Assembly (NCBI GenBank): GCA_041749115.1
Contig: JBGTBX010000415.1
Coordinates: 1 to 53,865 of the forward strand
Source: Gemmatimonadaceae bacterium
GTDB taxonomy: Bacteria; Gemmatimonadota; Gemmatimonadetes; Gemmatimonadales; Gemmatimonadaceae
Reading direction: 5' to 3'
Length of the DNA: 53,865 bases
Positions 9,980-45,385 of this stretch are shown here, in pieces (positions within the stretch are counted from its first letter, which is position 1; each line of letters begins with the position of its first letter). The position numbers were made by a program, and so were the translations under genes. The notes below the pieces were generated by a model, which saw nothing but the letters and a program-made list of their open reading frames with translations, searched no databases and was not told the origin of the DNA.

Positions 9980-10908
9980 GTGAGCCAGAACGCGGCACGA
10001 TCGGCAAGAATCTGTGCGCGAGAGCGGGACTTCTGAGCCTCGGCGACCAGGCGCATGATACCTGCGAGTGCGGTTTGTTCACCTGTCGCCGTCACTTCGA
10101 CGCGGAGGACACCAGCACCATTGACCGTGCCGCCAATGACTTGTGCGTCGGCAGCTTTTTTCACCGGTCGGGATTCGCCGGTGATCATCGCTTCATCGAC
10201 GTCGCTTGTGCCTTCGCGCACGATGCCATCAGCGGGCACGCTTGACCCCGGGCGCACTAGCACGAGATCCCCTTCGCGCAGCGTCGCGGCAGGCACTTCC
10301 TCGGTGCTGCCGTCCTCCGCAACCCGTGTCGCCATGTCGGGCAACAGCTTAGCAAGCTCCTGCAGCGCACCCTGAGCCTGAGTGATCGAACGCATCTCGA
10401 GCCAGTGACCCAGCAACATGATCGTGACCAGCGACGCCAGCTCTTCCCACAGCGGCATGCCGGGAAAGCCGAGTGTGACCGCGGCGCTGAAGAGGAACGC
10501 CACCAGGATGGCGAGCGAAATCAGCGTCATCATGCCAGGCGCTCGGTCGCGCAGTTCCCGGGCAGCGCCTTGGAGGAACACCCAGCCCCCGTAGACGAAG
10601 ACCAGCGTTCCAAAGACGGCCGGGATCATGTGGCTGCCGGTGAACGTGGGGGCGGTGTAGCCCAGCGCGTTCTGCAGCATGTGGCCCCAGATCAGGGGCG
10701 GAATCGTCAGGACGAGGCTCAGCCAGAATTTCTTGCGGAAGCCGTCGACGCTGTGTCCCGCGTGTTTGTCGTGGTCCTGGTGAGGCGAGTCGGCATGCAT
10801 TGCATGGGAGGCGCTCGTCGAGGGGGCGTCAGCCTTGTGACCATGATGACCGTGATGATTGGTCTGGTCCTCTTTTGGGTGATGCCCCTGTGCGTGCGGG
10901 TCCGACAT
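9889..10908 (-). pseudogene. N-terminal about 340 aa of a heavy-metal P1B-type ATPase (His-rich N-terminus), truncated
   Basis: Probable start MSDPHAQGHH at about 10908 (SD GAAGAGGG upstream). His-rich metal-binding tail, TM helices, actuator domain with ITGESRPV (TGES motif) and one further TM. The ORF then ends (WLVVGA RPQRVICTTP*) before the CPC/CPH, DKTGT and ATP-binding domains. Its 3' end overlaps the CusA fragment in another frame. Confidence 0.7.
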
Positions 10909-17439: not shown

Positions 17440-18930
17440 TCACGCAGCCGGAGCGCTCGATGGATCGGCCACGCGCCAGTCCTGACGAGCCACGACGCGC
17501 GCGCGTTCAGCAGCAACCGAGCTCTCTGACCATCCCAGAAGCTGCTGCATCGTGTTGGCGGCCTCATCGACCACCTCAGGTGCAGGAGGACCCATGAGCC
17601 CCAACGAGGTTCGGCGTTCGAGCACGTCGGTGAGCGCCAGCGCCATCTCTTCGGTGACGGCGAAGTGCGTTGCAGCACGCACATCGGTGGCCACCGGTTC
17701 AATCGGTAACGGCGAATCGGCGGTGTCGCACGTCCGGACCCGCTCGTCCAATACATCAGCTACCTGATTCACGGCAAGTTCGGCGGTATGTCTCGACGTG
17801 GTCCACTTTCCGCCCAGCGCCGACACAAGGTTCCGCGGACCACCGAATCGATCATGGCGCACGACTTCAGCGCGGCGGCTGGCTTTATACGTGTTCTTAC
17901 CGCTCGCAAGCAATGGCCGGAGCCCCGCATACGCATCGCGGACGTCGATATCACCTGCTGCCAATGAGGGAAGTCCCTGTCTTAATGTATCCACAAGCAG
18001 ATCCACTTCATCGGACTTCACGCGGAGTGCGTCCGGATCATCATTAAAAGGAGTGTCCGTCGTGCCGATGAGCGATTGACCTTGCCACGGCACGACGAAG
18101 AGATGCGATCCGGGCATCGGGAGCGTGAGCGCGTGCATGCCGACGACAGATCGTATCACAATATGTATTCCCTTGGAGCGCTGCAGTCGGTGAGACGGCT
18201 CGCCGTCCATTGCAGCATCAAGCAGCACATCAGACCACGGACCAGCCGCGTTCACAAAGGTTCTTCCCCGCACATCAAACGTGTCGCCACTGATTGCACA
18301 CCGAACCATCGCTGAGTGAAGAGCGCCGTCTGCGACATTAAACGACGTCACTTCGGCGTAGTTTGCGACCTGTGCGCCGTGCGCCGCCGCGTCCTGGAGA
18401 CACGCGATCGCCAGACGTTCGGGAGACAACATCTGTGCGTCTGAATAGACCAGCGCACCATACATCGCCCGCCCCTTAAGCACCGGCTCAAGCTCTCTGG
18501 CCTCGTCAGAAGAGACCCGTCGGTGTCCGTGCATGTGTTCGCTGTCGGGCATTCCGCGGTTGCGGTCGAAGGAGAGGCCGTCGTACAGTGACAGTCCCGC
18601 ACGAAGGTACAGTTCCTCGCGCAGGCTCCGTGTGGGCAGTACGAAGGACAAAGGCCTCACCAGCTGCGGCGCAATGCGCAGCCACGCACGTCGTTCGCGC
18701 AGCGACTCCCGGACCAGCGTGTATTGACCTGTTGCGAGGTAGCGCAGGCCCCCGTGAACGAGTCGGGTGGTGCCACTACTGGTCCCGCTCGAAAAATCGC
18801 GTCGTTCGACAAGCGCGACGGACAGGCCACGGCGGGCGGCGTCGCGTGCGATGCACACACCGGTGATACCGCCGCCGATCACAACAACGTCGAATGTGGT
18901 CTGCGCCAGAGCCGTCAAATCCCTTTTCAT
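17440..18930 (-). CDS. glpD: FAD-dependent glycerol-3-phosphate dehydrogenase
   Basis: FDVVVIGGGITGVCIARDAARRGLSVALVERRDFSSGTSSGTTRLVHGGLRYL is the GlpD/GlpA N-terminal FAD motif. 496 aa. Confidence 0.85.
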   Translation of the reverse strand: MKRDLTALAQTTFDVVVIGGGITGVCIARDAARRGLSVALVERRDFSSGTSSGTTRLVHGGLRYLATGQYTLVRESLRERRAWLRIAPQLVRPLSFVLPTRSLREELYLRAGLSLYDGLSFDRNRGMPDSEHMHGHRRVSSDEARELEPVLKGRAMYGALVYSDAQMLSPERLAIACLQDAAAHGAQVANYAEVTSFNVADGALHSAMVRCAISGDTFDVRGRTFVNAAGPWSDVLLDAAMDGEPSHRLQRSKGIHIVIRSVVGMHALTLPMPGSHLFVVPWQGQSLIGTTDTPFNDDPDALRVKSDEVDLLVDTLRQGLPSLAAGDIDVRDAYAGLRPLLASGKNTYKASRRAEVVRHDRFGGPRNLVSALGGKWTTSRHTAELAVNQVADVLDERVRTCDTADSPLPIEPVATDVRAATHFAVTEEMALALTDVLERRTSLGLMGPPAPEVVDEAANTMQQLLGWSESSVAAERARVVARQDWRVADPSSAPAA

Positions 18931-29942: not shown

Positions 29943-30076
29943 AGCAAAGGGATTGGAGTGGGGCACGCAGCAGCAGTGGGGGGGGGCCGCGCAGCGAAGC
30001 TGCGTGGTCCACGACGGACGCTATGGCCAGAGGAACCTGGATGAGTAGCAGTCCGTTGGGCTGAGGAATTGCGTGT

Positions 30077-30107
30077 CCCGTCCGGAGGTCCGGGCGGGAT
30101 TTTTCTT
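30077..30107 (+). terminator. Rho-independent terminator-like hairpin downstream of ilvE
   Basis: CCCGTCCGGA-gg-TCCGGGCGGG (10-bp stem, 1 mismatch) followed by ATTTTTCTT. Confidence 0.45.
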
Positions 30108-30176
30108 GGGTGTCGGATCTGGTATAGATGGGGCAACGGAGGTCGCGAACTTCACCAACAGCGGAGGAACTGCACG

Positions 30177-30791
30177 GTGATGGTTGGTTGTCTGGCGTTG
30201 AATGCATCGTTCGAACCACTCACAATGGTTCCGCTGAAGCGCGCCCTGCGGCTGGTCATCGACGGCAAGGCGGAAATCGTTGAAGCCGACGCCGGACGCG
30301 ACATTCATTCGGAGCGGCTCACGATCCCGCGCCCAACGGTCATCCGTCTCACGAAGTTCATTCAGGTGCCTCGCAAATTCCGCCGCCAGGTGACGAACAC
30401 GTTCCTGTTCGCTCGCGACGGTTACAAGTGTATGTATTGCGGACGTGCGTCCATCGAACTGAAGCCGAGGGAGGCCTTGACGCGCGATCACTTGATACCG
30501 CTCTCGCGGGGCGGTGCCAATGAATGGACGAACGTGGTTACCGCGTGTTCGACCTGCAACGCCCGCAAGTCGAACCGCCTGCCACACGAGATCGGGATGG
30601 TACCGCTCCGCGCGCCCATGGAACCCCATTTCGTCCACTTGAGTTGGGCCGTGCGGCGACTCACCGAAATTCAGTCGCGCTACATCAGAATGTTCTACGG
30701 CGAAGAGACGCTGGATCAACTGGCGTCGCTCGGCGCGCGATCGGGTCGCGGCCCCGAGCACGAACTGCTGGTCGGCCGGCCCATACGCTGA
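30177..30791 (+). CDS. HNH endonuclease (standalone, McrA-like HNH family)
   Basis: LALNASFEPL N-terminal motif common to this HNH subfamily. YKCMYCGRAS...LTRDHLIPLSRGGANEWTNVVTACSTCNARK is the HNH core with Zn-binding Cys pairs. SD GGAGGAA upstream. Confidence 0.75.
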   Translation: MMVGCLALNASFEPLTMVPLKRALRLVIDGKAEIVEADAGRDIHSERLTIPRPTVIRLTKFIQVPRKFRRQVTNTFLFARDGYKCMYCGRASIELKPREALTRDHLIPLSRGGANEWTNVVTACSTCNARKSNRLPHEIGMVPLRAPMEPHFVHLSWAVRRLTEIQSRYIRMFYGEETLDQLASLGARSGRGPEHELLVGRPIR

Positions 30792-30819: not shown

Positions 30820-31497
30820 CTAACGCGCGTCGAACACCGCGCTGTTGCCTTCGAGGGTGCGCCGCTCGCCCCCCAGCAGCCTGGACAAAAGTGTTCTCGC
30901 TCCTCGGCTTAATGCAGTGCCCGGATTGCGCTGCCCGCGCACCGCGGAAGACAGATCTCCGCTCACCCACCGGCGGAGTTCGTCCAGGTCCGACACCGAG
31001 AGCATCTCCAACTCAAGCACGACATGGTAGTACTGTCGCGTTGCCGGAACGGCCACGATACCGACGCGGAACGGTAGTTCGATCTGCGTTGTGACTTCGT
31101 TGATGGTACGGTATCGTGTCCCGGGAGCAGCTGCCGCAAACGGCACGATCGTGTCGCGCACAACACGCACCATCTCGTAGTTGCCTTCGAACGCATCGAA
31201 TCGCACAACGACGTCCCATTCCACCGTCCGCAGCAGACGGTCGAAGCCGCGTCGCGCCTGCCAGAGTTCCGTGCGGAAGTGGAGTCGTGCGGGGAACCCC
31301 GCGTGGAGCAGCTCACGAACATCCTTATCTGCCAGCACGCCCACCACTCGCACGCTTGGACCAACATACGCCACCGAATCGGTGACGGGTGCTCGCACAA
31401 AGATCGCAGGCTGCGGTTGCGCCAGCAGTTGCCGAGCACCAGCGACGCCAAGCAGCAAAGCAAAGAGTGGCACGCACCAGATACGCCGCACGCCCAT
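30820..31497 (-). CDS. DUF4390 domain protein (secreted)
   Basis: Signal peptide MGVRRIWCVPLFALLLGVAGA. Family membership assigned by similarity of length and composition to NtrYX-associated DUF4390 proteins. Last gene of the eight-gene operon (4-nt overlap with the upstream OMP gene). Confidence 0.5.
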   Translation of the reverse strand: MGVRRIWCVPLFALLLGVAGARQLLAQPQPAIFVRAPVTDSVAYVGPSVRVVGVLADKDVRELLHAGFPARLHFRTELWQARRGFDRLLRTVEWDVVVRFDAFEGNYEMVRVVRDTIVPFAAAAPGTRYRTINEVTTQIELPFRVGIVAVPATRQYYHVVLELEMLSVSDLDELRRWVSGDLSSAVRGQRNPGTALSRGARTLLSRLLGGERRTLEGNSAVFDAR

Positions 31498-31499
31498 GA

Positions 31500-33266
31500 T
31501 CAGAATCGTGGCCGAAGCCGGACGACAAAGTTCACTGGCGAGTGTGATTGTGACAGTCCCTTGGCCACGTAGAGCCCGACATTGTCGAGCACCACACCGA
31601 TGCCGATGTCCGTCTGAAAGGTTGAAAGGGGTGGCAGTACACCCTTCCGAAACGTGACGCGACCGTCAGGTTGTCCGACCTGCCAGCCGCGACCGGCGTC
31701 GGCGAACAGAACGAACTGCGTACCACGTCCCCAGCCGCGTCTGCGAAACGAGCGGTCGCCGCTGAATAATCCAAACGGATCCACGTTGAGCCGACCACGA
31801 AACTCCACCTGAACAAACGCGATGCGATCGCATTCAGCCGGCGTGCCGTTGGCCTGTGTGCCACCCGTGAGCTGACGACTGCACTGCCAGTAATCGATTG
31901 GTGCGCCCCCGACTTCTCCCACCACGTCGCGAAAATCGTATCCGGGGAGTGTACCGGGGCCGCCGACCGAGAGTCGCCGTTCCATCGGCAGCTGATCACC
32001 GCTCAGCCAGCCTCCAAGCAACACTCTGGCATTGAATTGACTGCCCGGCGAAATGCGGCTGTACCGACGTGCGTCGATCAGAACGCGGTCATACGAAGTG
32101 GCGCCCCCCACAGTTTGCACTCGCGGGCTCGTCGGCGCCGTGCTGTATCGAGAGATCGTTCCGGTACCGTATTCATACTCGCCGGACAGGTACCAGCCGT
32201 CATCAGGGAGGCGCGTATTCGAGCGCGTATCGTACGTAACGCGCACGCTTCCCAACGTGAATCTGCCATCGTCGACATCCGGATTTTCGCGCCACCCCTC
32301 GGCGTCGCGCGTCAGAGTCCACGGATCCCGCACACTGCGCGCACCCCACCGCTCCCTGGACCACCCGACCGTGACATCAAGATCATTGCCTACGAACGCG
32401 GAAGCAGAGACCGAACCTCCCTTGCGATCGAAGTAGTCGCGAAAGTCCCGATGAAGAAGGAAGGACGCAAGCCCGACTTCACTGTCGCTCAGCTTCCATG
32501 GTTCAACGGCATCCACAACATCAAAATGCCGCGCTCCGATTCGCCAACCGTATTGCTTGCCGACGCTTACTTCAACTTCTGCCGAGTGACCCACGTTCTC
32601 CGGCGTGAGTTCAAAGGACCTGACGCTACGCAGCACGCTGAGTGCCTCGACGGTGACGCGCCCCCAGTCGAACTCGCGTCCGATCACCGGGCCGAGGAGC
32701 ACGGGAAGACCTTCGACGCGATTGTACGTGCGTGCCGAGGCAAGCCGCAGTTCAGTCCAACCCTGTTCGCGCCACCGGTCGCGTTGCCGCCACCAGCGTG
32801 TCGCCAGGTTCGCCGACGGTGTGACAATGGAATACACACCGTCAACGACATTCAGCTGCAGACGTTCGCGATACACGACCACACGTCCCGCGTCCGTCAG
32901 CCGATCAACGTCCGGCAACGATCCTCCGAAGACGAAGACCGTGTCTTCAAGCACAGCGGAGGGCGCGAATCGAACGGTGCCATTTACTACGAAGAGTCGT
33001 CCTCGGAGGCGTCCTTCGGCGCGCACGTCTCCGCCGATGACAACGACCTGGCTGCCCGACTCGAGGCCAGGCACAGTCACCGACGCGGTCTGGATCACGC
33101 GCGTTGAAGAATCGTTCAGCGCGTTCAGCAACACCTGCTGCGCGGCCGTGGGAACCTGGGCCGACGCAGGAGCCTGGGCGCCTCCCGCCGCAGAAGCGGC
33201 GAACGTGGCGACGATGCTGCCGGCGCAGAACGCCGCACGACGAGCTCCTGATCGTGGCGTGAACAT
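31500..33266 (-). CDS. Outer-membrane beta-barrel protein with an N-terminal beta-helical (bactofilin/polymer-forming-like) passenger region
   Basis: Signal peptide with AxA site. VVVIGGDVRAEGRLRGRLFVVNGTVRFAPSAVLEDTVFVFGGSL resembles repeated beta-helix rungs. The C-terminal half is rich in alternating aromatic/Gly and ends ...VVRLRPRF (terminal Phe typical of OMP barrels). Confidence 0.55.
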   Translation of the reverse strand: MFTPRSGARRAAFCAGSIVATFAASAAGGAQAPASAQVPTAAQQVLLNALNDSSTRVIQTASVTVPGLESGSQVVVIGGDVRAEGRLRGRLFVVNGTVRFAPSAVLEDTVFVFGGSLPDVDRLTDAGRVVVYRERLQLNVVDGVYSIVTPSANLATRWWRQRDRWREQGWTELRLASARTYNRVEGLPVLLGPVIGREFDWGRVTVEALSVLRSVRSFELTPENVGHSAEVEVSVGKQYGWRIGARHFDVVDAVEPWKLSDSEVGLASFLLHRDFRDYFDRKGGSVSASAFVGNDLDVTVGWSRERWGARSVRDPWTLTRDAEGWRENPDVDDGRFTLGSVRVTYDTRSNTRLPDDGWYLSGEYEYGTGTISRYSTAPTSPRVQTVGGATSYDRVLIDARRYSRISPGSQFNARVLLGGWLSGDQLPMERRLSVGGPGTLPGYDFRDVVGEVGGAPIDYWQCSRQLTGGTQANGTPAECDRIAFVQVEFRGRLNVDPFGLFSGDRSFRRRGWGRGTQFVLFADAGRGWQVGQPDGRVTFRKGVLPPLSTFQTDIGIGVVLDNVGLYVAKGLSQSHSPVNFVVRLRPRF

Positions 33267-33275
33267 GATGTGTAG

Positions 33276-34679
33276 CTAATCTATGGCGCCGTCCGCAGCC
33301 GTGGGTGTGGCTGCGTCCGGTGCGATGTCGAGCCGTTTCATCCGGCGATACAGGTTGGGTCGATCTGTCTGAAGTCGCCGAGCCGCCTCAGCGACGTTTC
33401 CGCCGGCCGCGCTGAGCGCGCGCGCGATCAATTCGCGCTCATAGTCGTCAAGCATCCGGTTCAGCGGCACATCCGACGTGTCTGCCGTCACTGTACGGGC
33501 AAATTCCGGTGTGTCGTGCAACGCGATGACTTCCTGCACGTCGGCAACACCGATGCGCTGCCCGGGGTGAAGGATCATCAGGCGCTCTACGACGTTGGCC
33601 AGTTCGCGCACGTTGCCCGGCCAGCGGTAGCGCATGAGGCACTGCAGCGCTCCCTCTGACCATTCGGGCAGCGAGCGTCCGGATCGCAGTCTCAGAAGCG
33701 ATGCGAAGTGACTGACGAGCAACGAGATGTCGGACGTGCGATCCCGCAGCGGCGGTAGCGGGACGGGAATAACATTCAGCCGGAAGAGCAGGTCGTCGCG
33801 GAACGCCCCTCCGCGCACGGCGCGTTCGAGATTCTTGTTGGTTGCCGCGATCACGCGTGTATCGACCGGGATGGGTTTCGTGCCTCCAACGCGCTCGATC
33901 TCGCCCGCCTCAAGTGCGCGCAGAAGTTTTGCCTGAGCTTCGGCGCCCAGATCTCCCACTTCATCGAGGAAGAGCGTACCTCTGTGAGCCAGTTCGAACT
34001 TGCCCAGTCGTCGTTCAGTGGCACCTGTGAACGATCCGCGCTCATGGCCGAACATCTCGCTTTCCACGAGGTCGCGCGGGATTGCGGCGCAGTTCACACG
34101 AATGAATGACAGGTCACGCCGAACGCTGGCCTCGTGAATGCCGCTCGCGACCAGCTCCTTGCCCGTCCCGGATTCACCGGTGATGAGTACACGTGAATTG
34201 GTGGGGCCGATGCGTTGAATCAGATCCCGCACCCGCTGCATCGGTTCGCTCTCGCCGATGAGTGCTCCTCCACCGGTGATCTCTGCACGCAGGACCGCCG
34301 CTTCGCGTCGCGCGCGGCGCAGCTCCAGCGCCGAGCCGAGCGCAAGCAACACGCCCTCCGGTGTCAGTGGCTTCTCGAGGAACGTGAACGCTCCGAGTCT
34401 GGTGGCGCGCACCGCGTCGCTCAACCCGGCTCGACCACTCATCATGACGACCGGGAGCTGGGGCACCTGGTCGTGCAGCGCCTTGAGCACGCCCATCCCA
34501 TCGAGGTCGCCCGGCATCATGAGGTCCACCAAAACGACGTCTGGTTCCTGATCAAGCGCAGCGGCTATTCCGGCATGAGCATTTGCGGCCTCCCGAACAT
34601 CGTATCCTTCGCTGGCCAGCAGCGCGCCGACCATGCGGCGGATGTTGGGTTCGTCGTCGATGATCAGGACGGAGGGCAT
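33276..34679 (-). CDS. Sigma-54-dependent response regulator (NtrC/NtrX family: REC + AAA+ + Fis HTH)
   Basis: REC (VLIIDDEPNIRRM...DLMMPGDLDG), AAA+ Walker A GESGTGKE, GAFTGA-type sigma-54 contact motif (ERGSFTGA), and a C-terminal Fis-type HTH (GNVAEAARRLQTDRPNLYRRMKRL). Confidence 0.85.
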   Translation of the reverse strand: MPSVLIIDDEPNIRRMVGALLASEGYDVREAANAHAGIAAALDQEPDVVLVDLMMPGDLDGMGVLKALHDQVPQLPVVMMSGRAGLSDAVRATRLGAFTFLEKPLTPEGVLLALGSALELRRARREAAVLRAEITGGGALIGESEPMQRVRDLIQRIGPTNSRVLITGESGTGKELVASGIHEASVRRDLSFIRVNCAAIPRDLVESEMFGHERGSFTGATERRLGKFELAHRGTLFLDEVGDLGAEAQAKLLRALEAGEIERVGGTKPIPVDTRVIAATNKNLERAVRGGAFRDDLLFRLNVIPVPLPPLRDRTSDISLLVSHFASLLRLRSGRSLPEWSEGALQCLMRYRWPGNVRELANVVERLMILHPGQRIGVADVQEVIALHDTPEFARTVTADTSDVPLNRMLDDYERELIARALSAAGGNVAEAARRLQTDRPNLYRRMKRLDIAPDAATPTAADGAID

Positions 34680-34691
34680 GTGCGAGCCAGA

Positions 34692-35336
34692 TTAACGCGA
34701 TGTTTCCTGGCGTACACTCTCACGCTGGGGTATCTCAATCGGTTGTGCTTCAACAGGAGAAAGCGCCCGCATCTCACTCATGAGTTTGGTGCTGTATCGC
34801 TGATTCTCGGAGATACGTTCCACTTCGATGGCGATAGCATCCACGGCTTGTTCCATACGGTCAAATCGTTGACCGTCTCCATCCGAAGGGGACGTTTTGC
34901 CACGACCCTCAAGCCGTCTGGCGATGGCGCGCACGAGTGGTCCGCCCAGAAAGATCGCCGCCGCGAGAAACATGGCGCCAAAAATTACTTCCTGAACATC
35001 CGGCGGAATAGCGTTGGTGTCCCTGGGGCTCTCCACGGTCGCGGCTTCGTACGTGCGGCCGGACGCCGCGGCATCCAGTTGTTGTTCGACCGATTCGAGG
35101 CGATCCTGCGCTGCATTAATCTGATCGCGAATCACCGAGACGGCGCTGTTGGACTGCCCGGGCACGAGTCGGTCGGTCAGATCCTGTACCTCTTTCTTGG
35201 TGCCGGCGATCTGCGCCTGCAGGATTTCAATCGCCCGATTGGGATCGCGCGCTGTCAACGGCCCTTCGAGGAGCTGTGGAAGCGGCGGTGGTGGCGGTGG
35301 CGCTGTCACGCCGGCTTGCTGATCGAAAATATGCAT
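34692..35336 (-). CDS. Paralog 4 of a tandem family of small single-TM proteins (214 aa: N-terminal coiled-coil, TM, conserved C-terminal motif)
   Basis: N-terminal Pro-rich and coiled-coil segment (ILQAQIAGTKKEVQDLTDRL...), TM (VIFGAMFLAAAIFLGGPLV), then RFDRMEQAVDAIAIEVERISENQRYSTKLMSEMRAL. Start ATG overlaps the stop of paralog 3 (TAATG). Confidence 0.6.
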   Translation of the reverse strand: MHIFDQQAGVTAPPPPPPLPQLLEGPLTARDPNRAIEILQAQIAGTKKEVQDLTDRLVPGQSNSAVSVIRDQINAAQDRLESVEQQLDAAASGRTYEAATVESPRDTNAIPPDVQEVIFGAMFLAAAIFLGGPLVRAIARRLEGRGKTSPSDGDGQRFDRMEQAVDAIAIEVERISENQRYSTKLMSEMRALSPVEAQPIEIPQRESVRQETSR

Positions 35337-35935
35337 TATGCAGGAGTGTCAGCGGTCCGACGGACCGGTGTAGGCTCACGCGCCGCCTGACTGAATGATT
35401 CGGCAGGTGGTGCCGGGAGTGCTCGCATTTCATTCAGGAGCATTGCGCTGTAGCGCTGTCCTTCAGACACCCGCTCCATCTCCACAGCAAGCGCATCGAT
35501 CGCCTGTTCAATGCGATCGAGTCGATCGTCGTCGGCTGCGGCAGCGGGGCGAACGCGCAACTCCGACCGGCGCGCCCATGAACGAATGACAGGCAGCAAC
35601 AGCACGGTTACGGCGATCGTGGAAAAGAGCCAGGCGCCGATGTCGGTGAAGTTGATGGGATCCATCGGTGGCGGCTCCGGGAACTGCGTCACAGTGATAG
35701 GTTCGTCGCCACGAATTCTCTGATCGAGCGACTCCTGCAGAGATTGCATCCGCTCCGTGGCACGTTCAATCTGAGCCACCACGGCCTCTTCACGCGCATC
35801 GGAGGTGCCATTGGTGAGCTGTGATGTGAGATCACCAATCTCCTGCCTGATGCCTGCGATTTCTGCGCGCAGCAGACCGATGGTCTGGACCTGAGTGATC
35901 TGCTCGGGCGTCGGAGGCGGTAGCTGAGGTTGCAT
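35336..35935 (-). CDS. Paralog 3 (199 aa: N-terminal coiled-coil, TM, conserved C-terminal motif)
   Basis: N-terminus MQPQLPPPTPEQ...LLRAEIAGIRQEIGDLTSQL aligns to the paralog 4 N-terminus. TM IGAWLFSTIAVTVLLLPVI, then DRLDRIEQAIDALAVEMERVSEGQRYSAMLLNEMRAL. TAATG overlap with paralog 2. Confidence 0.6.
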   Translation of the reverse strand: MQPQLPPPTPEQITQVQTIGLLRAEIAGIRQEIGDLTSQLTNGTSDAREEAVVAQIERATERMQSLQESLDQRIRGDEPITVTQFPEPPPMDPINFTDIGAWLFSTIAVTVLLLPVIRSWARRSELRVRPAAAADDDRLDRIEQAIDALAVEMERVSEGQRYSAMLLNEMRALPAPPAESFSQAAREPTPVRRTADTPA

Positions 35936-36231
35936 TATGACGACCTCCGCGACGCGGACTCGCGCGCAGCGGCTGGCAGTGCAACAGGCTCCGGCCCTCT
36001 CTCCGCCATAAGCCGTGTGACAAAACGCTGGCCTTCGGAGATGCGTTCCACCTCGACTGCCATGGCATCAATCGCGTGTTCGATGCGATCCAATCGCATG
36101 ACGACCTCCGGCTGTGCAGGACTTGGCTTCGAGTCGAGGCGGCGAATCCACGCCCGCATGAGCGGAATGCCGAAGGAAAGAACAATGATGGTGCCGAAAG
36201 TTGCAATAATCGCAACGATGTCTTCATCCAT
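35935..36231 (-). CDS. Paralog 2 (98 aa: N-terminal TM + conserved C-terminal motif)
   Basis: MDEDIVAIIATFGTIIVLSFGIPLMRAWIRRL...MRLDRIEHAIDAMAVEVERISEGQRFVTRLMAER. SD GAGGG upstream. Confidence 0.6.
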   Translation of the reverse strand: MDEDIVAIIATFGTIIVLSFGIPLMRAWIRRLDSKPSPAQPEVVMRLDRIEHAIDAMAVEVERISEGQRFVTRLMAERGPEPVALPAAARESASRRSS

Positions 36232-36246
36232 TTGGTTGCCCTCAGA

Positions 36247-36531
36247 TTAATCAGAAGATGCAGGCGAGTGATGCGGAGCGTCCTGTTGCGTGCGCTCCGC
36301 CAGGAGACGGGTGTTCATGCGTTGAGCTTCGGACAGTCGTTCCACTTCGCCGGCAATCGCGTCGATTGCATGCTCAATACGGTCGAGCCGATCCTCACCC
36401 GGGCCCACGCTTCCTCCACCATACTGGCGTGTCTGCAATTCAGCCATACGCTCTCTGTAGCCCAGCACGGATCGGATGATCGTCGCGATGCTGATGAATA
36501 AAACGATCGGAATAAGGAATTGAAGCCCCAC
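36247..36531 (-). CDS. Paralog 1 (94 aa: N-terminal TM + conserved C-terminal motif)
   Basis: MGLQFLIPIVLFISIATIIRSVLGYRERMAEL...DRLDRIEHAIDAIAGEVERLSEAQRMNTRLLAER. GTG start overlaps the kinase stop (TAGTG). Confidence 0.6.
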   Translation of the reverse strand: MGLQFLIPIVLFISIATIIRSVLGYRERMAELQTRQYGGGSVGPGEDRLDRIEHAIDAIAGEVERLSEAQRMNTRLLAERTQQDAPHHSPASSD

Positions 36532-37784
36532 TAGACACCACCTTGTTTGAGTACCACCGGGAGAATAATGCGAATGAGGGTTCCGCGCGCGACTTCGCTG
36601 GACGCACTGACCTCACCGTTGTGCTCGACGACTGCCTGCCTCGCAATCGCAAGCCCGAGCCCCGTGCCGGCCGGCTTGGTCGTGACGTACGGATGCCAGA
36701 TGTCTGCAATGCGATCCGGAGGGATTCCGCTCCCCGAATCGGCAATGCTGAATTGCACGGCGGGCTCTCCATTCAGCGACGCGCTCTCCACGTGCATGGT
36801 GATGGTCCCTCCATGAGTCGTTGCGTCGACGGCGTTGAGCACCACGTTGGACAAGGCCCGATGAATCGATTCAAAACGAGCGGTGAATGAACCAACACCC
36901 CGGCCGACTTCCACAGAGCCGGTGTGCGTGGCCGGGACACACGCGCGCATCACTGCGTGCGCCAACTCGACGGCGTCGACATCAGACGGCGGCCCATCGG
37001 GCAATCGGCCGAACTGTGCAAAGCTGCGCGCCAATCGATCCAGCCGCGCGGTTTCTTCGCGGATGACTTTCACGGGCTCTGCGAATGCCTCGGGAGCCTT
37101 CGCGAGTTGTGCGAGCGCGAACTGAATGGGCGTCAACGGGTTTTTGAGTTCATGTGCGACACGGCGCGCCGATTCGCGAAAGGCAATCGAGCGTTCGAGA
37201 TCCACGGCGCGCTGGCGTCCCAGCTGGAGTTCGTGTGACATGCTGCGCATCCTGTCCCGGAGCACCCCGAATTCCGGTGCGCCTCTCACCTGAGTTTCCT
37301 CTGGCAGCGCTTCTCCGCGTGCGATGTGCCCGGTCCAGCCAACGAGTTCCTGAATGGGCCGACTGAGCTGTCGTGCGAGGTGGCCTGCAACTCTCGAAGC
37401 GGCCACCGCAAAGACGAGCAGCATGAGCAGCGCGCCGAGTATGGCTGCGGGAACAATCTGCCTGACAACAAAGCCGAGTCTCCTAGCTTGTGTGAGCGAC
37501 GACTCGAGTTCGCGTTCATGTGATCGCAGTGCCTCTCGTTCGGTAGGAGTAAGATTCGCGTTGTCGAGGACGGATGTGGCTGTCCTGCCTGAGGTTGCGA
37601 CTCGTTCCCATGCAGCATCCGCAGTCAGAGACGGGAGCGTTCGCCAGGCGGCGATCCCCCAGACTGCTGTAAGGACAAACGCGGGCACGAGCGCGAAAAG
37701 GGCAAGGCTCAGGAGGAGTCTTTGGCGGAAGCCAAGCCTCTTCATAGAGGCACTACGACGAGAAAAATGAGCGGTTTCGGGCAC
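36531..37784 (-). CDS. Sensor histidine kinase (2 TM, periplasmic loop, HAMP, HisKA, HATPase), NtrY-like
   Basis: TM1 LLLSLALFALVPAFVLTAVWGIAAW, an 80-90 aa loop, TM2 IVPAAILGALLMLLVFAVAA, then HAMP (ARQLSRPIQELVGWTGHIARGE), H-box VAHELKNPLTPI and the ATPase G-boxes (IADSGSGIP, GTGLGLAI). Start is either the GTG at 37784 or the internal MKRLGF. Confidence 0.8.
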   Translation of the reverse strand: MPETAHFSRRSASMKRLGFRQRLLLSLALFALVPAFVLTAVWGIAAWRTLPSLTADAAWERVATSGRTATSVLDNANLTPTEREALRSHERELESSLTQARRLGFVVRQIVPAAILGALLMLLVFAVAASRVAGHLARQLSRPIQELVGWTGHIARGEALPEETQVRGAPEFGVLRDRMRSMSHELQLGRQRAVDLERSIAFRESARRVAHELKNPLTPIQFALAQLAKAPEAFAEPVKVIREETARLDRLARSFAQFGRLPDGPPSDVDAVELAHAVMRACVPATHTGSVEVGRGVGSFTARFESIHRALSNVVLNAVDATTHGGTITMHVESASLNGEPAVQFSIADSGSGIPPDRIADIWHPYVTTKPAGTGLGLAIARQAVVEHNGEVSASSEVARGTLIRIILPVVLKQGGV

Positions 37785-38167
37785 AGGAGTAGACTGGGGC
37801 CGTCGGCGCAGGAGCGCGAGGGGCTGTGGCCCTCAAGCAGCTCCTCGCTGATGCAGGGGTAACTCTTTCCGCGGTCGATCGTTACATTCATGTTGTCTGT
37901 CGTGCGCGCGGGGTGCTTCAATAGGAAGCCGCCCGGTTCGGGCCCGCGCCGGCCAGCCATACGCCATCGTCGTCTCCGCGCCAACCGCTGGGAGACGGTG
38001 TGCGTGTGACTGACCGTCGACAGACGAAGCAAGGGGAAGGTGCCGCGTTCGTGTGAGCGACGCGCACGCCCAACCGTCCAGAGAGCGTTAAGACGTGTGC
38101 CGCGTTCTCTCGGAAGGCGTTCATTCATTCGCGCGATCACGCGCACAGGCACAACACACAACTGAAC

Positions 38168-40078
38168 ATGCATGCTCGTAACACTCGGCCCGCCCCAACG
38201 CGCGCGCCGATCGCCCCCATTCACAGGGGGCCCCAGGCCCAAGGGCCAGGCACCTATGGTGCCCCGGTGCCCAACGCATCGAACGCCGCTCTCTTGATCG
38301 ACTTTGACAATGTCACCATGGGCATCCGCTCGGGGTTCGCAAATGAACTCCGCAGTCTGCTCGGGTCGGAGATCATCAAAGGAAAGGTGGCAGTCAAACG
38401 TGCCTACGCCGATTGGCGAAGGTACCCGCAGTACATCGTGCCGCTTGCCGAGTCGTCGATCGATATGATCATGGCGCCGGCCTACGGGTCGTCCAAGAAG
38501 AACGCCACGGATATTCGACTCGCTGTCGATGCCATGGAACTCGTCTTCACGCGCCCCGAAATCGGTACCTACATTCTGTTGTCCGGTGATTCCGACTTTG
38601 CATCGTTGGTCACCAAGATCAAGGAGTACGGCAAGTACGTCATCGGTATCGGCATCCGGGAGTCATCGAGCGACCTGCTCGTGATGAACTGTGACGAGTA
38701 CTACAGCTACAACGCGCTGGCCGGATTGGTTAAGTCGAGCGACGAAGAAGTGACCAAGTGGGATGCGTGGGAACTGGTGGTCGAAGCCATCACCCGCATG
38801 CAGAAGAATGGCGATGTAATGCGTTCGGACCGTCTCAAGCAGGTCATGCAGGACATCGATGCCACTTTCGACGAGAAAAACGTCGGGCATGGCTACTCCA
38901 AGTTTTCACGCTTCGTGTCGGATGCGGCAGATAAAGGTCTGCTGACAACCACTAAGCTGGAGAACGGTCAGCTGGAAGTGACGCCGGGAACAGGCCAGGC
39001 TGTGGTTGCCGCACAGGCTTCACTGGCAGCATCACCGCCGAGTGAAACGGAACAGCGCCGCGAAGAACGGAGTGGTCGCCGCCGACGTGGCGGGCGCGGT
39101 CGTGGTGGACGGGATGGTGAGCGAACGGCAAGTCCTGCTGCGGCCACACCGGCTGCTGCTGACAGCACGACGGCCAAACCAGCGGTTGCTGCCGCGACTG
39201 AACAAAAGGCAGCTCCGGCGGCTGAACAGAAAACAGCTGCTGCAGCACCTGCAGCGGCTGAACAGAAAGCAGCTCCTGCCACGGCGTCAACCACGTCGGC
39301 CAGGCCGGCTGCAGCGGCTCCCAGTACCGGCGCAACCGCTCGCGCGGCAACGCCGGCTGCGGCTGCGAAACCTGATACCATTGGGTTAAGTGGCGAGCGA
39401 CTGTCGCGCGCAGAAGCATTCGATCTCGTGCGCAAGGCCGTCGAGGCAACGACGAAGGATGTCGATGATTCGGCGTTGTCATATGTGGTTCGCCACAAGG
39501 CACACGAGTTGCTGGGTCGGGACAGTGAATCACTGAGTGAACGTAACTTTCACCGGATACTTCGGGACGCACACGATGTCGAAACGATTGACCTGCGGCG
39601 TCGAGGTGATGACTACGAAGTGTCGCGTCCAGCCAAGGCTCCGAGCGTCGCTGAACAGGTAAGCAAAGCCGAGGCTGCGGCAACACCCGCACCGAAGGTG
39701 AGTGCACCAGGACCGAGAGGCATGGGTCCACGCGGTATTCCGGGTCGCGGCCGTGGTCGCGCCAGTGAAATGCCACCAGAATTGCTGATGGTGGGTGTGG
39801 TGGGTCCGTCGAGTGGTGCAGTAGCGAAGGCCGTGCCGGCCAGTGACAACGGCGCTGAGGCGGAGGTCGCAAAAGCCGACGTCGCAAAGGCCGATGCCGC
39901 AAAAGCCGAGGCCGCTCCGGTGAAAAAGAAGCCAACGCGCACACCGCGAAAGCGTGCTGCGAAGAAAGCGACGGCCAAGGCAACTGTCGCGCCTGACGAT
40001 GCCGAAGTTGCGGATAAAAAGCCGAAGGCGAAAACTGCACGGAAGCGTGCTGCCAAAAAGAAGACGGCGGCCGTTTGA
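38168..40078 (+). CDS. NYN-domain (LabA/PIN-like) protein with two OST-HTH/LOTUS domains and a Lys/Ala-rich histone-H1-like C-terminal tail
   Basis: NAALLIDFDNV...KRAYADW...TDIRLAVDAMEL...ILLSGDSDFASLV is the NYN nuclease-fold signature. ...WELVVEAITRMQKNGDVMRSDRLKQVM is a LOTUS-like helix-turn-helix. A long Ala/Pro/Glu/Lys low-complexity linker carries AEQKAAPA repeats. A second LOTUS-like region (AEAFDLVRKAVEATTKDVDDSALSYVV) follows. C-terminal tail PVKKKPTRTPRKRAAKKATAKA...KPKAKTARKRAAKKKTAAV. Confidence 0.65.
   Translation: MHARNTRPAPTRAPIAPIHRGPQAQGPGTYGAPVPNASNAALLIDFDNVTMGIRSGFANELRSLLGSEIIKGKVAVKRAYADWRRYPQYIVPLAESSIDMIMAPAYGSSKKNATDIRLAVDAMELVFTRPEIGTYILLSGDSDFASLVTKIKEYGKYVIGIGIRESSSDLLVMNCDEYYSYNALAGLVKSSDEEVTKWDAWELVVEAITRMQKNGDVMRSDRLKQVMQDIDATFDEKNVGHGYSKFSRFVSDAADKGLLTTTKLENGQLEVTPGTGQAVVAAQASLAASPPSETEQRREERSGRRRRGGRGRGGRDGERTASPAAATPAAADSTTAKPAVAAATEQKAAPAAEQKTAAAAPAAAEQKAAPATASTTSARPAAAAPSTGATARAATPAAAAKPDTIGLSGERLSRAEAFDLVRKAVEATTKDVDDSALSYVVRHKAHELLGRDSESLSERNFHRILRDAHDVETIDLRRRGDDYEVSRPAKAPSVAEQVSKAEAAATPAPKVSAPGPRGMGPRGIPGRGRGRASEMPPELLMVGVVGPSSGAVAKAVPASDNGAEAEVAKADVAKADAAKAEAAPVKKKPTRTPRKRAAKKATAKATVAPDDAEVADKKPKAKTARKRAAKKKTAAV
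39197..39281 (+). repeat. Imperfect in-frame tandem repeats (about 27-36 nt) encoding AEQKAAPA units within the NYN/LOTUS gene linker
   Basis: gctgaacaaaaggcagctccggcg / gctgaacagaaaacagctgctgcagcacctgcagcg / gctgaacagaaagcagctcctgcc. Confidence 0.5.
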
Positions 40079-41737: not shown

Positions 41738-43339
41738 CTATGTCGCCTTCTTGCCGTCGGGGGGTGGTCCGCCGGGTAGTGACGGCTCTTCCTTGGACAT
41801 TGATCCCATATAACCGGGCAGTTCTACTCCTGCGATGTCACGCAGGACCTGCATCATTGGCGGCATCGTGCGGGCCATGTTCTGCAGAAATCCTGCGGCG
41901 CCACCGTCGGCTTTGCCACTGTCCCACACCACAACTTTATCAAATTTGATATTCGAGATGGCCTTTGCCGACGTCTCAGCCAACGTATCAAGGTGGTCAA
42001 CCATCATGAGTTGGAACGCTTCCTTGGCGCCACCGGCAGCTGCGACGAGCTCCTTCATCGCATCGGCACGCTTGGACATGATCTCATACTGCCCGCGCGC
42101 CTCGGCCTCCAGCTTAAGAAAGATGGCCTGCGCCTCGGCCTGCGCCTGAATCAACTGACTCTCTGCTGACGCCTGCGCTTCAACAATAGTGCGCGCCTTC
42201 TCGGCGCGGGCCGGGGCTTCGAGCTCCGCACGCCGCTCCGCTTCAACACGTTCGAGCAGCGCCATTGCTGCCCGCGCCATCGCCCGATTCTGTGATTCCT
42301 GTACCGAGGCTTCGGCCTCTCGTTTACTTGTTTCGGAAAGCTGATATGCTTCGGATTCGCGCACCTGCAGTGTGGCGCGACTGGCGGCGACGAGCGCCAT
42401 GGATGCCGCCTCGCCCTCGATCGCCTTGGCCTCGTTGTCTGCGATGCTGACGCGCCGCACACGATCGGCGTCCTTGATTGCCGCGTCGCGTTCAAAGGCT
42501 GCTGTTTGTTCACCAACGGTTTGCTCGCGCTCGACTTCGGCAACGCGCACCAGCGTGTCACGCTCGGCTTCGCGCATGCCGATTTCCTTGATCTTGGTCG
42601 CATTGGCGACGAGCACCGCGCGATCACGCTCTGCGTCAGCGACGCGTACTTCACCCAGCTTCTCCTGATCAGCGACATCACCACGTGCCTGTTGCACCGC
42701 CATGGCGGCGGCCTTTTTCCCAATGGCTTCGATATATCCCGAATCGTCCTTGAGGTCGGTGATATTTACGTTAATCAGCACAAGTCCGATCTTGCGGAGT
42801 TCCGGTTCCAGCGACGTCTGAATGCGGTGGAGAAAACCCTCGCGGTCGCGATTGATTTCTTCGATGCTCATCGACGCGATCACCTGTCGCAGCTGACCGA
42901 AGATGATGTCCTGTGCTTGTCTCTTAATGAGCTCGTGATTGAGACCGAGCAACCGGATCGCTGCATTCTGCCGTACCACCTCTTCGGTGCCGATGGCGAC
43001 AGTGAATACACTCGGCACCGCGACGCGGATGTTCTCGAGTGAGAGGGCATCCTTGAGCGGAATGTCGATCTGAATCGGTTCCAGCGACAGATATGCGAAT
43101 TCCTGGATCACCGGCCACACGAAAGTGCCGCCACCCGAAATGCAGCGGGCCGCGCCCTCGCCGCCTACCCGACCGGAGATCACAAGCACCCGATTGGCTG
43201 GACAACGCTTGTATCGTGTGACGAACAGCGCTGCCATGCTCGCGAGAATCAGCAGTCCCAGCCCCGACGCGACAATGGTGATCGGGAAATTGCTTAGCAG
43301 ATCACCAACAGGAGCAGCTTGAAGAAACATACTAGGCAT
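41738..43339 (-). CDS. Flotillin / SPFH (band 7) domain protein
   Basis: N-terminal TM, SPFH domain, and a long Ala/Glu-rich coiled-coil (EAERRAELEAPARAEKARTIVEAQ). The likely start is the internal MPSMFLQ, which avoids a 113-bp overlap with nfeD. Confidence 0.8.
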   Translation of the reverse strand: MPSMFLQAAPVGDLLSNFPITIVASGLGLLILASMAALFVTRYKRCPANRVLVISGRVGGEGAARCISGGGTFVWPVIQEFAYLSLEPIQIDIPLKDALSLENIRVAVPSVFTVAIGTEEVVRQNAAIRLLGLNHELIKRQAQDIIFGQLRQVIASMSIEEINRDREGFLHRIQTSLEPELRKIGLVLINVNITDLKDDSGYIEAIGKKAAAMAVQQARGDVADQEKLGEVRVADAERDRAVLVANATKIKEIGMREAERDTLVRVAEVEREQTVGEQTAAFERDAAIKDADRVRRVSIADNEAKAIEGEAASMALVAASRATLQVRESEAYQLSETSKREAEASVQESQNRAMARAAMALLERVEAERRAELEAPARAEKARTIVEAQASAESQLIQAQAEAQAIFLKLEAEARGQYEIMSKRADAMKELVAAAGGAKEAFQLMMVDHLDTLAETSAKAISNIKFDKVVVWDSGKADGGAAGFLQNMARTMPPMMQVLRDIAGVELPGYMGSMSKEEPSLPGGPPPDGKKAT

Positions 43340-43895
43340 TCTCCTCTCCGTCGTCGAGAAGTCGGGGTTGTGGAACAACAATAACCGTGGATGGCGGAAC
43401 AGCGTCGATGACCAGAACGCGCGTTCCCGTCGCCAGTTCATCACCCGGTGTCATCGCATCGATTTCAGTAAAGCGTTGCTTCGCTGTTATATGAACCTTG
43501 CCAAGGCCGCCACGCGCGGCTGGAATGCTGAGGTACACGTCACCGGTCTGTCCGATGGCATCCTCGAGTCGGAGCGTACGATCACTTTCGAGCCGTCGCA
43601 TCGCCCGCATAATGAACGAAACGCCAGTCGCCGCGGCAGCGCCGGAAACGATACCGATTGCCGCGGCGAGGACTCCAGGCAGGCCCACACGCATTCCCGC
43701 GATGCCGCCGAGGCCGAAGAACGCGACGCCAGCAGACATGGTACGAACACTCAGAAACTGCAGTCCTTCGCTAAGCTGCGTGCCATGCAGTTCACTATCC
43801 AGCCCGTCCTGATCGAGACCGAGGAGGGACGCGCCGAGCTGCAGCAGCGCGATGCCGCCGCCAAGAAGCAAACAGGTCCAGAAGAACGCTGACAT
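43332..43895 (-). CDS. NfeD-like membrane protein (flotillin-associated, YqiJ-like)
   Basis: TM helices (FFWTCLLLGGGIALLQLGASLLGL; VAFFGLGGIAGMRVGLPGVLAAAIGIVSGAAAATGVSFIM), then a C-terminal OB-fold-like segment (GDVYLSIPAARGGLGKVHITAKQRFTEIDAM...GTRVLVIDAV). Lies directly upstream of flotillin. Confidence 0.65.
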   Translation of the reverse strand: MSAFFWTCLLLGGGIALLQLGASLLGLDQDGLDSELHGTQLSEGLQFLSVRTMSAGVAFFGLGGIAGMRVGLPGVLAAAIGIVSGAAAATGVSFIMRAMRRLESDRTLRLEDAIGQTGDVYLSIPAARGGLGKVHITAKQRFTEIDAMTPGDELATGTRVLVIDAVPPSTVIVVPQPRLLDDGEENA

Positions 43896-44191
43896 CGGAA
43901 GTAAGTGTTTCCTGCGGTTTTCCGCCCATATTCGTGAGCAGTCCGAACGGTGAGCCCACAAAGCGGTAGTGTCGGGCGGGCGAGGTCAAGGTGCACTACG
44001 GACGAGCAGGCATCGCCGTTTCGGGCCTGGACGGGCCTTGCATGTCGTCAGGGGGCCCGCTGGACGAGGGATCGTCCTGTCAGCTGATAGGACGGTCTCG
44101 TCACAGCCCGCACGCCACGTGTTGAATGCCGTGGTACGATAAGAAGTTGTCGCTGCACCACATGCCCCTCGCTCAAACTTTCAGGTTCTCC

Positions 44192-45385
44192 ATGATGAAT
44201 CGACCATTCTTTTTTCTGCTTGCTGCGTGTGCCGACAGCGGTCCCACGGAGCAGTATGGTTTCGTTACTCTGCTGGGCAGGGACACGGTCTCCGTCGAAC
44301 GGGTGTCACGGTCACCCGGTCGTATGGTCAGCGACATTGTCGACCGATTCCCGTTTGTAAGGCAGCGGCACAGTGAATTCGAGCTGACTGCGGATGGCAG
44401 GATCAAAAGAATGGTCATGGATGTGCGCACGCCGAGCGGCGCCACGCCGGCGGCACGGGGGCGTCGCGTCATCGCCGATGTTTCCGACGACGGTGTGCGC
44501 ATTTCTGTGCGGGACAGCGCCGGCGTGCGTGACACTGCGTTCACGGCGACGAACGCGATTATCGTCCCCCACGTATCGATGATGTACAGTGTTATAGAGT
44601 TGGAGGTAGCTGCGGCCTTGAGGCGAGCGGCCGCGCAGGGACTCAAGGCGGGGGAAGGGGTGCAGTTCCGGCAGTTTTATCCCGACCGGGATGTGGGGCC
44701 GAGCTTCACCTTGCATCAGGGCGTGGTAAAGCCGCTCGATAACACGCGGGTGGAACTTCGCCACGATTGGTTGGCGGGGGCCGGCGACATCACCGTTGAC
44801 AGTGCCGGCAGAATGCTCACCTATGCGGGAGCACGCAGCACGTATCTGGTTGTGGTAACCCGTACAGCTGAACTCCCGGACGTGGAAGCGATTGGGGCGC
44901 AGTTCGCGCAGGCCGAACAGCGGGCAGGTGCGAATCAACTGAGCGTGCGGGATACGGCCAGAGCCAGTATCGGTATCGCAACATTGTCTGTGGACTACAG
45001 TCGGCCGCTCGCGCGCGGACGTGCGCTCCTCGGCGCGGTCATACCGTTCAATTCTGTATGGCGCACGGGGGCAAACGCAGCGACACATTTCACTACATCT
45101 GCACCGATCACCGTGGCCGGATTAAAACTCGCAGCTGGTACCTACACACTCTGGACGATCCCGCGACCGGACGGTGTGGACCTCGTGGTGAACACTCAGA
45201 CCGGCCAGTGGGGAACTGGGTATAACCAGACACGCGACCTCGGACGCGCCCCGCTTCAAACACAGGTCCTGACGGATACAGTCGAGAAATTCACAGTCGA
45301 TATCACTTCCCGCGATTCCAAACGCGGTGAGCTGTCCCTGTCATGGGGCACCTTCCGCTGGACGGCGCCGATCCAGGTGCAGTAG
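44192..45385 (+). CDS. Lipoprotein with C-terminal DUF2911 domain
   Basis: Lipobox MMNRPFFFLLAAC|ADSG. C-terminal WRTGANAATHFTTSAPITVAGLKLAAGTYTLWTIP...LSWGTFRWTAPIQV matches the DUF2911 family pattern. Confidence 0.55.
   Translation: MMNRPFFFLLAACADSGPTEQYGFVTLLGRDTVSVERVSRSPGRMVSDIVDRFPFVRQRHSEFELTADGRIKRMVMDVRTPSGATPAARGRRVIADVSDDGVRISVRDSAGVRDTAFTATNAIIVPHVSMMYSVIELEVAAALRRAAAQGLKAGEGVQFRQFYPDRDVGPSFTLHQGVVKPLDNTRVELRHDWLAGAGDITVDSAGRMLTYAGARSTYLVVVTRTAELPDVEAIGAQFAQAEQRAGANQLSVRDTARASIGIATLSVDYSRPLARGRALLGAVIPFNSVWRTGANAATHFTTSAPITVAGLKLAAGTYTLWTIPRPDGVDLVVNTQTGQWGTGYNQTRDLGRAPLQTQVLTDTVEKFTVDITSRDSKRGELSLSWGTFRWTAPIQVQ

Follow-up and report, generated by a model that had tools for sequence, protein, structure and literature searches.

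Positions 30820–37784 of contig JBGTBX010000415.1 (assembly GCA_041749115.1) from a Gemmatimonadaceae bacterium, which was analysed over a stretch of 53,865 nucleotides (nt; hereafter, the window), contain eight consecutive open reading frames (ORFs), all on the minus strand. An initial annotation had described an eight-gene minus-strand operon here, and the ORF list and the junction analysis bear out its gene positions. The genes encode a sensor histidine kinase (HK), four small single-pass (bitopic) membrane proteins (P2 to P5), a response regulator with the features of a sigma-54 enhancer-binding protein (EBP), an outer-membrane protein of the Omp85 family (OMP), and an exported PlrP-like protein, which we designate G8. 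The locus seems to represent a previously undescribed relative of the recently reported PlrP–NtrYX three-component systems, in which the DUF4390 protein PlrP is the periplasmic third component of PlrSR (PMC13001219). The features of the cluster are as follows (aa, amino acids; HMM, hidden Markov model; AF2, AlphaFold2).

36531–37784, minus strand: HK, sensor histidine kinase (longest ORF, with a GTG start at 37784)
36247–36531, minus strand: P2, paralog of 94 aa (paralog alignment, family profile HMM, positive-inside count)
35935–36231, minus strand: P3, paralog of 98 aa, short core type (paralog alignment, family profile HMM, comparison of loci)
35336–35935, minus strand: P4, paralog of 199 aa (paralog alignment, family profile HMM, positive-inside count)
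34692–35336, minus strand: P5, paralog of 214 aa (paralog alignment, family profile HMM, positive-inside count)
33276–34679, minus strand: EBP, response regulator and sigma-54 enhancer-binding protein of 467 aa (Pfam, NCBIfam, BLASTP)
31500–33266, minus strand: OMP, outer-membrane Omp85-family protein of 588 aa (Pfam, AF2, Foldseek)
30820–31497, minus strand: G8, exported PlrP-like protein of 225 aa, assigned by its sequence family to a divergent DUF4390 clade (orthologs, Pfam, AF2)
37785–38167, no strand: divergent intergenic region between the HK gene and an NYN-domain gene, presumed promoter region

The stop-to-start distances along the eight genes are −1, 15, −1, −1, 12, 9, and 2 nt, in agreement with the earlier description of genes that overlap or are separated by no more than 15 nt. 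Overlaps of 1 nt (TAGTG/TAATG) occur at three junctions, HK/P2, P3/P4, and P4/P5. The ATGA overlap that had been reported between the OMP and DUF4390 genes was a misreading; this junction is TGATCATG (TGA-TC-ATG), that is to say, a 2-nt gap.

Conservation of the cluster across Gemmatimonadota

The comparative synteny check proposed with the initial annotation was performed on 55 related loci that had at least 6.5 kb of sequence upstream of the G8 homolog. The same order, HK, 1 to 4 small proteins, EBP, Omp85, and DUF4390 on a single strand, was found in 55 of 55 Gemmatimonadota loci, and every gene was intact in 53 of them. This synteny rules out a chance juxtaposition of the eight genes. In the 2 other loci (L042 and L065), which are on contigs of long-read metagenome-assembled genomes (MAGs), the EBP and Omp85 genes are split into several ORFs, probably owing to frameshift assembly errors rather than gene decay. 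The Omp85 and G8 genes, which are adjacent in the window, overlap by 1 nt in the related locus L001.

The HMM of the small-protein family matched solely between the HK and EBP genes in these loci. Among 61 loci, after correction for four interval artefacts, the small proteins were present in 1 copy (25 loci), 2 copies (14 loci), 3 copies (19 loci), or 4 copies (3 loci). Thus, the conserved core consists of five genes, and the four copies of the window represent the high end of the range. Each of P2 to P5 has orthologs in the nearest relatives, and the short core type represented by P3 is the type kept in single-copy genomes.

Relatives of G8 were found in at least 444 genomes in a scan with one genome per species; the best 80 loci all belong to Gemmatimonadota, as do all named homologs. 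The carriers include cultured Gemmatimonadota, such as a Roseisolibacter isolate, as well as Gemmatimonas MAGs. A literature search returned nothing on the cluster, on Omp85–bactofilin fusions, on NtrX in Gemmatimonas, or on the H-box peptide of the kinase. A PADLOC search identified no defence system, with matches only to the generic AAA+ domain of EBP and to a weak coiled coil, and a role in anti-phage defence was thereby ruled out.

Domain architecture of the five components

Alignment of the HK N-terminus with two orthologs indicated that the likely true start is the ATG at 37745 (MKRLGFRQR...), which yields a protein of 404 aa. According to hydropathy analysis (404-aa numbering), HK contains a first transmembrane (TM) helix (TM1, residues ~7–34), a conserved periplasmic loop of 55 aa (residues ~35–89), and a second TM helix (TM2, residues ~90–124). 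TM2 is followed by a HAMP domain, a HisKA domain that begins ~20 residues past HAMP and carries the H-box ARRVAHELKNPLTPIQ, and a HATPase_c domain. These three were the only Pfam domains matched at E ≤ 0.1; neither a PAS nor an NtrY_N domain was found. Comparison of the sensor region and the HAMP-DHp fragment with NCBIfam did not retrieve any NtrY model, and there was no match at all for the sensor region. The H-box is intact, with its H+4 Asn phosphatase motif (HELKN), and N and G boxes are present. This H+4 Asn corresponds to the residue mutated in N525A, the phosphatase-defective allele of PlrS (PMC13001219).

A tblastn search of plasmids with full-length HK was dominated by generic HATPase matches and was uninformative, and the DHp segment (67 aa) was used as the query instead. 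Against 7.3 Gb of plasmids and chromids, this segment matched 18 records only, all of them alpha-proteobacterial; the 2 matched loci that were inspected are both canonical dusB-ntrB-ntrC-ntrY-ntrX-trkA clusters, one of which is annotated as ntrY at the matched gene. The H-box of HK (ARRVAHELKNPLTPIQ) closely resembles that of S. meliloti NtrY (ARRIAHEIKNPLTPIQ) and conforms to the NtrY-type DHp/H-box pattern AHEIKNPLTPIQ, and the two kinases are 30% identical over the DHp and CA regions. From the NtrY-specific matches of the DHp segment and the likeness of the H-boxes, the kinase core of HK is assigned by sequence to the NtrY type, while its sensor architecture is not that of NtrY. The earlier call of an NtrY-like kinase therefore holds specifically for the DHp domain and H-box; it does not extend to the remainder of the protein, in which two TM helices and a 55-aa loop precede a HAMP domain and neither PAS nor NtrY_N is present.

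EBP consists of a receiver domain (Response_reg, E = 1e-25), an AAA+ domain (Sigma54_activat PF00158, E = 8e-67), an AAA lid, and a Fis-type helix-turn-helix (HTH) domain (HTH_8, E = 3e-10), and its assignment as a sigma-54-type regulator is thereby supported. The AAA+ domain carries the Walker A motif (GESGTGKE) and an intact GSFTGA loop, and GHERGSFTGA of EBP aligns with GHEKGAFTGA of NtrC. The NCBIfam scores were 390.8 bits for NtrX (NF051870, cutoff 600), 412 bits for NtrC, and 401 bits for AtoC; for these and for all other equivalog models, EBP scored under the cutoff. BLASTP against S. meliloti gave 291 bits for NtrX and 301 bits for NtrC, with 38% identity to each. The label NtrX-like, which the regulator had received initially, is only partly supported, given the equal identity to NtrC, the NCBIfam scores, and the GAFTGA-type loop, which S. 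meliloti NtrX does not have.

The four small proteins, described earlier as paralogs, were confirmed as such by a paralog alignment, in which P3 to P5 share 36–40% identity with P2. Each contains one TM helix, a basic stretch, and then a shared, near-invariant amphipathic helix (RLDRIEQAIDAIAVEVERISEGQRF). In P2, an N-terminal TM helix is followed directly by the conserved cytoplasmic helix (RLDRIEHAIDAIAGEVERLSEAQR). P4 has a periplasmic N-terminal coiled coil, a Pro-rich linker, the TM helix (residues 99–117), and the conserved cytoplasmic helix; P5 is laid out in the same manner, with the TM helix at residues 117–135. Summed over 27 family members, Lys and Arg residues within 12 residues of the TM helix number 6 on the N-terminal side and 108 on the C-terminal side. 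By this positive-inside count, the paralogs are assigned an N-out/C-in single-pass topology, which places the conserved helix in the cytoplasm and the N-terminal extensions of P4 and P5 in the periplasm. The family profile HMM matched only the four genes of the cluster within the window. The family has more than 2,100 matches in 90% clusters and ~4,000 representatives at 50% identity, and has no relative in Pfam, NCBIfam, or the PDB. Sequence searches of the PDB with the small-protein and G8 profiles returned nothing significant, the best match being a polyketide-synthase docking coiled coil (E = 0.03).

OMP is composed of a signal peptide, a bactofilin-like β-helix (residues ~56–148), a basic and aromatic linker helix, a 16-strand β-barrel, and a C-terminal Phe; the C-terminal Phe and the signal peptides of the exported proteins were read directly from the sequences. 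Pfam Omp85 (PF01103) matched OMP with E = 3e-10 and was matched in 47 of 47 homologs. Bactofilin was matched in 12 of the 47, and no POTRA family was matched in any of them at E ≤ 0.01. The AF2 model (predicted local distance difference test score, pLDDT, 79) has 16 barrel strands preceded by the β-helix, and its best Foldseek matches were BamA and TamA (E ~1e-9 to 1e-10). Taken together, these data substantiate the outer-membrane β-barrel/β-helix protein recognised in the initial annotation. The L6 motif of the barrel is LPGY rather than VRGY/F. The β-helix takes the place of the POTRA domains and is presumably periplasmic.

G8 has a Sec-type signal peptide with an N-terminal hydrophobic stretch, a conserved A-x-A-Q site, and a β-sandwich core. 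The AF2 model (pLDDT 84) likewise contains a β-sandwich, for which the PDB neighbours were generic Ig-like domains only. DUF4390 (PF14334) was matched in 26 of 30 aligned G8 homologs at E ≤ 0.01 (best E = 1.4e-9). Among 7 orthologs of the window protein, three (50–56% identical) scored 27–35 bits, three scored 13–22 bits, and one had no match. At the level of the sequence family, G8 is therefore placed in a divergent DUF4390 (PlrP) clade. Within the G8 family, conservation is highest in a basic C-terminal segment (RGQRNPGTALSRGARTLLSRLLGGERR, residues 187–213), for which the family sequence is RGQRNPGTALSRGxRTLLSRLLGGERR. This segment is located beyond the Pfam DUF4390-matched region and is modelled with low confidence, and it is thus likely a partner-binding motif.

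Promoter searches and genomic surroundings

Matches to the sigma-54 promoter pattern (−24 GG/−12 GC) with up to 2 mismatches numbered 57 in the window, compared with 65.6 expected, and were not in excess over shuffled sequences; no such promoter was found ahead of the Omp85 gene. Consensus scans for sigma-70 promoters and terminators revealed no promoter-like site, and terminator-like sites were below chance. In the intergenic region between the HK and NYN genes (37785–38167), neither a sigma-54 nor a sigma-70 consensus was detected, and in k-mer and repeat footprinting of the orthologous upstream regions only the coding sequence of the divergent NYN gene recurred. One near-consensus sigma-54-like element (TGGCACCTCCGATGC, 1 mismatch) is located at 35796–35810 (minus strand) inside the P4 coding sequence, ~460 nt upstream of P5; across the window, elements of this kind are no more numerous than expected by chance.

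The same intergenic region contains two exact copies of GAACGCGGCAC, 57 nt apart (38040–38050 and 38097–38107, minus strand), and another copy is located at 9988–9998 (plus strand). Each intergenic copy runs into a −24-like GGCAC, with either the wrong spacing or no −12 GC. The repeat is not conserved in the orthologous upstream regions, and it may therefore be a chance occurrence or a strain-specific binding site.

The cluster is bordered by a divergent NYN-domain gene (38168–40078, plus strand) and a convergent HNH-endonuclease gene (30069–30791, plus strand). The NYN-domain protein has an Ala/Lys/Pro-rich low-complexity tail of ~400 residues. A divergent gene also stands beside the orthologous cluster in L001, where it encodes an NYN domain, and in the related locus L002, where it encodes a protein of 521 aa without a Pfam match. 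In L002, a PspA/IM30 gene (17562–18311) is located ~7 kb downstream of the cluster; it has no counterpart in the window and is probably coincidental. A few kb upstream of the cluster in the window are genes for an SPFH/Band 7 membrane protein (41738–43444, minus strand) and a DUF2911 protein (44126–45385, plus strand), to which no link was seen. The surroundings are otherwise ordinary chromosomal genes (PBP1, an amidohydrolase, a class IV aminotransferase, and a methylpurine glycosylase), and an Rfam search of the window found no RNA family.

Relation to known systems and proposed mechanism

The closest comparison is with PlrP–PlrS–PlrR of Bordetella and other beta- and gamma-proteobacteria. 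In ~99% of the genomes that have PlrP, its gene is no more than 5 kb away from that of an NtrY-family kinase, a distribution that was examined within Proteobacteria (PMC13001219), and the earlier statement that DUF4390 proteins are companions of NtrYX-family systems is borne out by that paper. In the window, the G8 gene is ~5 kb from the end and 6.3 kb from the start of the HK gene, which is borderline relative to that distance. The two systems share an exported DUF4390 protein clustered with a response regulator and a kinase with an NtrY-type DHp domain and H+4 Asn. Comparison of the two revealed that (i) the DUF4390 gene is the last of the cluster here, whereas it is located 5' of the kinase gene in Bordetella; (ii) HK does not have the PDC, PAS, or NtrY_N domains; (iii) the AAA+ sigma-54 module is complete in EBP, whereas the AAA+ domain is missing from beta-proteobacterial NtrX (PMC13001219); and (iv) the Omp85 protein and the small bitopic proteins are additional, and the DUF4390 clade, from another phylum, is divergent with a distinct basic C-terminal segment. 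The paralog array and OMP had been described as foreign to known NtrYX loci, and this holds for the published systems (PMC13001219) and for the two ntrYX loci inspected.

The alpha-proteobacterial NtrY–NtrX pair has a near-identical DHp/H-box motif and the same receiver–AAA+–HTH layout. By contrast, alpha-proteobacterial NtrY is a protein of ~770 aa with a multi-TM N-terminal domain, HAMP, and PAS, and the genes of the dusB-ntrBC-ntrYX-trkA cluster have no counterparts among the neighbours in the window (no ntrBC, dusB, or trkA). In QseE–QseG–QseF (GlrK–YfhG–GlrR) of Enterobacteriaceae, the genes for the kinase, the accessory envelope protein, and the sigma-54 regulator follow one another in this order, the accessory protein controls the phosphorylation state of the kinase, and the output is envelope homeostasis (PMC6075780). 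The cluster described here has a kinase, an envelope accessory protein, and a sigma-54 regulator in the same gene order. However, QseG is an outer-membrane lipoprotein of unrelated sequence, that system has no Omp85 or DUF4390 partner, and EBP scored 306 against the GlrR equivalog cutoff of 763 (NCBIfam). OMP resembles BamA, TamA, and TpsB in its Pfam Omp85 domain, predicted 16-strand barrel, and C-terminal aromatic residue, and differs from them in having a bactofilin-like β-helix instead of POTRA domains and in being encoded inside a two-component operon.

Most likely, the locus encodes an envelope-sensing system of the NtrYX/PlrP type to which two new conserved components have been added. 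We assign a probability of about 0.55 to the full reading, in which the locus is a phylum-wide five-component envelope-signalling module built on an NtrY-type kinase and an NtrC-family sigma-54 activator, with a PlrP-like mechanism. In Bordetella, PlrP genetically controls the phosphatase/kinase balance of PlrS via the PDC domain (PMC13001219, 2026). By analogy, the DUF4390-like protein would set the kinase/phosphatase balance of HK from the periplasm. It may also pair with the Omp85 protein, probably via the basic C-terminal segment, and report the state of the outer membrane; this pairing is suggested by the adjacency and the occasional overlap of their genes. The small bitopic proteins would serve as accessory subunits on the cytoplasmic part of HK or on EBP, and the long paralogs would reach into the periplasm through the Pro-rich linker and coiled coil. 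As the output, target genes in other parts of the genome would be transcribed in a sigma-54-dependent manner.

Several points weigh against this module. The window protein G8 itself matched PF14334 with only 12 bits (E = 0.14), below the Pfam cutoff of 27, so that the earlier DUF4390 call stands at the family level and falls short for this individual protein. The effect of PlrP needs the PDC domain of PlrS (PMC13001219), whereas HK has a 55-aa periplasmic loop only. EBP is, by its sequence, an NtrC-family sigma-54 activator for which an assignment to NtrX cannot be preferred over one to NtrC. The search ahead of the HK gene yielded no sigma-54 promoter, and none is conserved in 62 orthologous upstream regions. 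The single transcript of eight genes is predicted from their spacing; the Bordetella plrSR cluster, which is spaced alike and has an operon-like look, has internal promoters (PMC13001219). Sequence features support the localisations of the parts, but the single envelope-spanning route proposed in the initial annotation is speculative, and the contacts and phosphotransfer between the components are hypothetical. Finally, instead of acting as sensors, the products of the Omp85 and DUF4390 genes may be cargo under the control of the system.

This last possibility, that a two-component system is accompanied by cargo, is the best of the alternatives, though we consider it rather unlikely. It holds that HK and EBP are an ordinary pair and that the Omp85 and DUF4390-like proteins, possibly together with the small proteins, are structural envelope products that are merely co-transcribed or cis-regulated. 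These products might make up a module for outer-membrane assembly or secretion and would not feed signals back to HK. Target genes are common in two-component operons, the best-known proteins with the Omp85 fold are insertases and translocases (the matches to BamA and TamA were joined by weak ones to ShlB/TpsB), and the Omp85 and DUF4390 genes are located downstream of the regulator gene, where they may have a promoter of their own. However, DUF4390 proteins otherwise occur almost only beside NtrY-type kinases and act on the kinase (PMC13001219), which, together with the NtrY-type DHp domain of HK, argues for a functional link rather than cargo. In addition, the small proteins are always encoded between the HK and EBP genes, and no sigma-54 promoter precedes the operon or the Omp85 gene.

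A physical trans-envelope complex, in which the Omp85 barrel with its β-helix, the PlrP-like protein, and the bitopic proteins relay the state of the outer membrane to HK or EBP, is a further reading that we regard as unlikely. A relay of the cell-surface-signalling (FecA–FecR–FecI) type is more doubtful still; here the OMP β-helix and the DUF4390-like protein would touch the periplasmic arms of the long paralogs, and the cytoplasmic helix would act on the DHp/HAMP region of HK or on EBP. Such a relay would accommodate a barrel with an N-terminal non-POTRA domain, N-out/C-in paralogs in which the periplasmic extensions are Pro-rich and coiled-coil and the cytoplasmic helix is invariant, and the strict co-conservation of all components. 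However, 25 of the 61 loci have a single short paralog with essentially no periplasmic part, so that the periplasmic arm is not essential to the core mechanism, and the topology of the paralogs is opposite to that of FecR. A Psp-like membrane-stress circuit, in which the small membrane proteins would sequester and release EBP as PspA/B/C do PspF, is very improbable. In its favour, the sigma-54 activator gene stands beside genes for small single-pass membrane proteins with coiled-coil helices, and there is a faint match to a PspA-like coiled coil (E = 0.009). However, this PspA match reaches only 15.8 bits, with the cutoff at 243, no PspB or PspC match was found at E ≤ 0.1, and EBP differs from PspF in its receiver domain and in having a cognate kinase.

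The recognition of DUF4390/PlrP as a third component of NtrYX-family systems dates from 2026 and is confined to Proteobacteria (PMC13001219). The locus extends the partnership between DUF4390 proteins and NtrY-type kinases to a distant phylum, in which it is combined with a regulator competent for sigma-54 and with two more partners that are strictly co-conserved. Both partners represent new families, namely, a POTRA-less Omp85 protein with a bactofilin-like domain and a bitopic family of ~4,000 clusters at 50% identity without a Pfam or NCBIfam model. The locus offers testable ideas on the binding partners of DUF4390 proteins and suggests that an Omp85 protein may take part in signalling, and genetics and biochemistry are feasible because cultured Gemmatimonadota carry it. 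If the trans-envelope complex is real, it would represent a previously unknown class of signalling system, in which a member of the Omp85 family acts as a sensor rather than an insertase, and the small proteins would constitute a new class of adaptors for kinases or activators.

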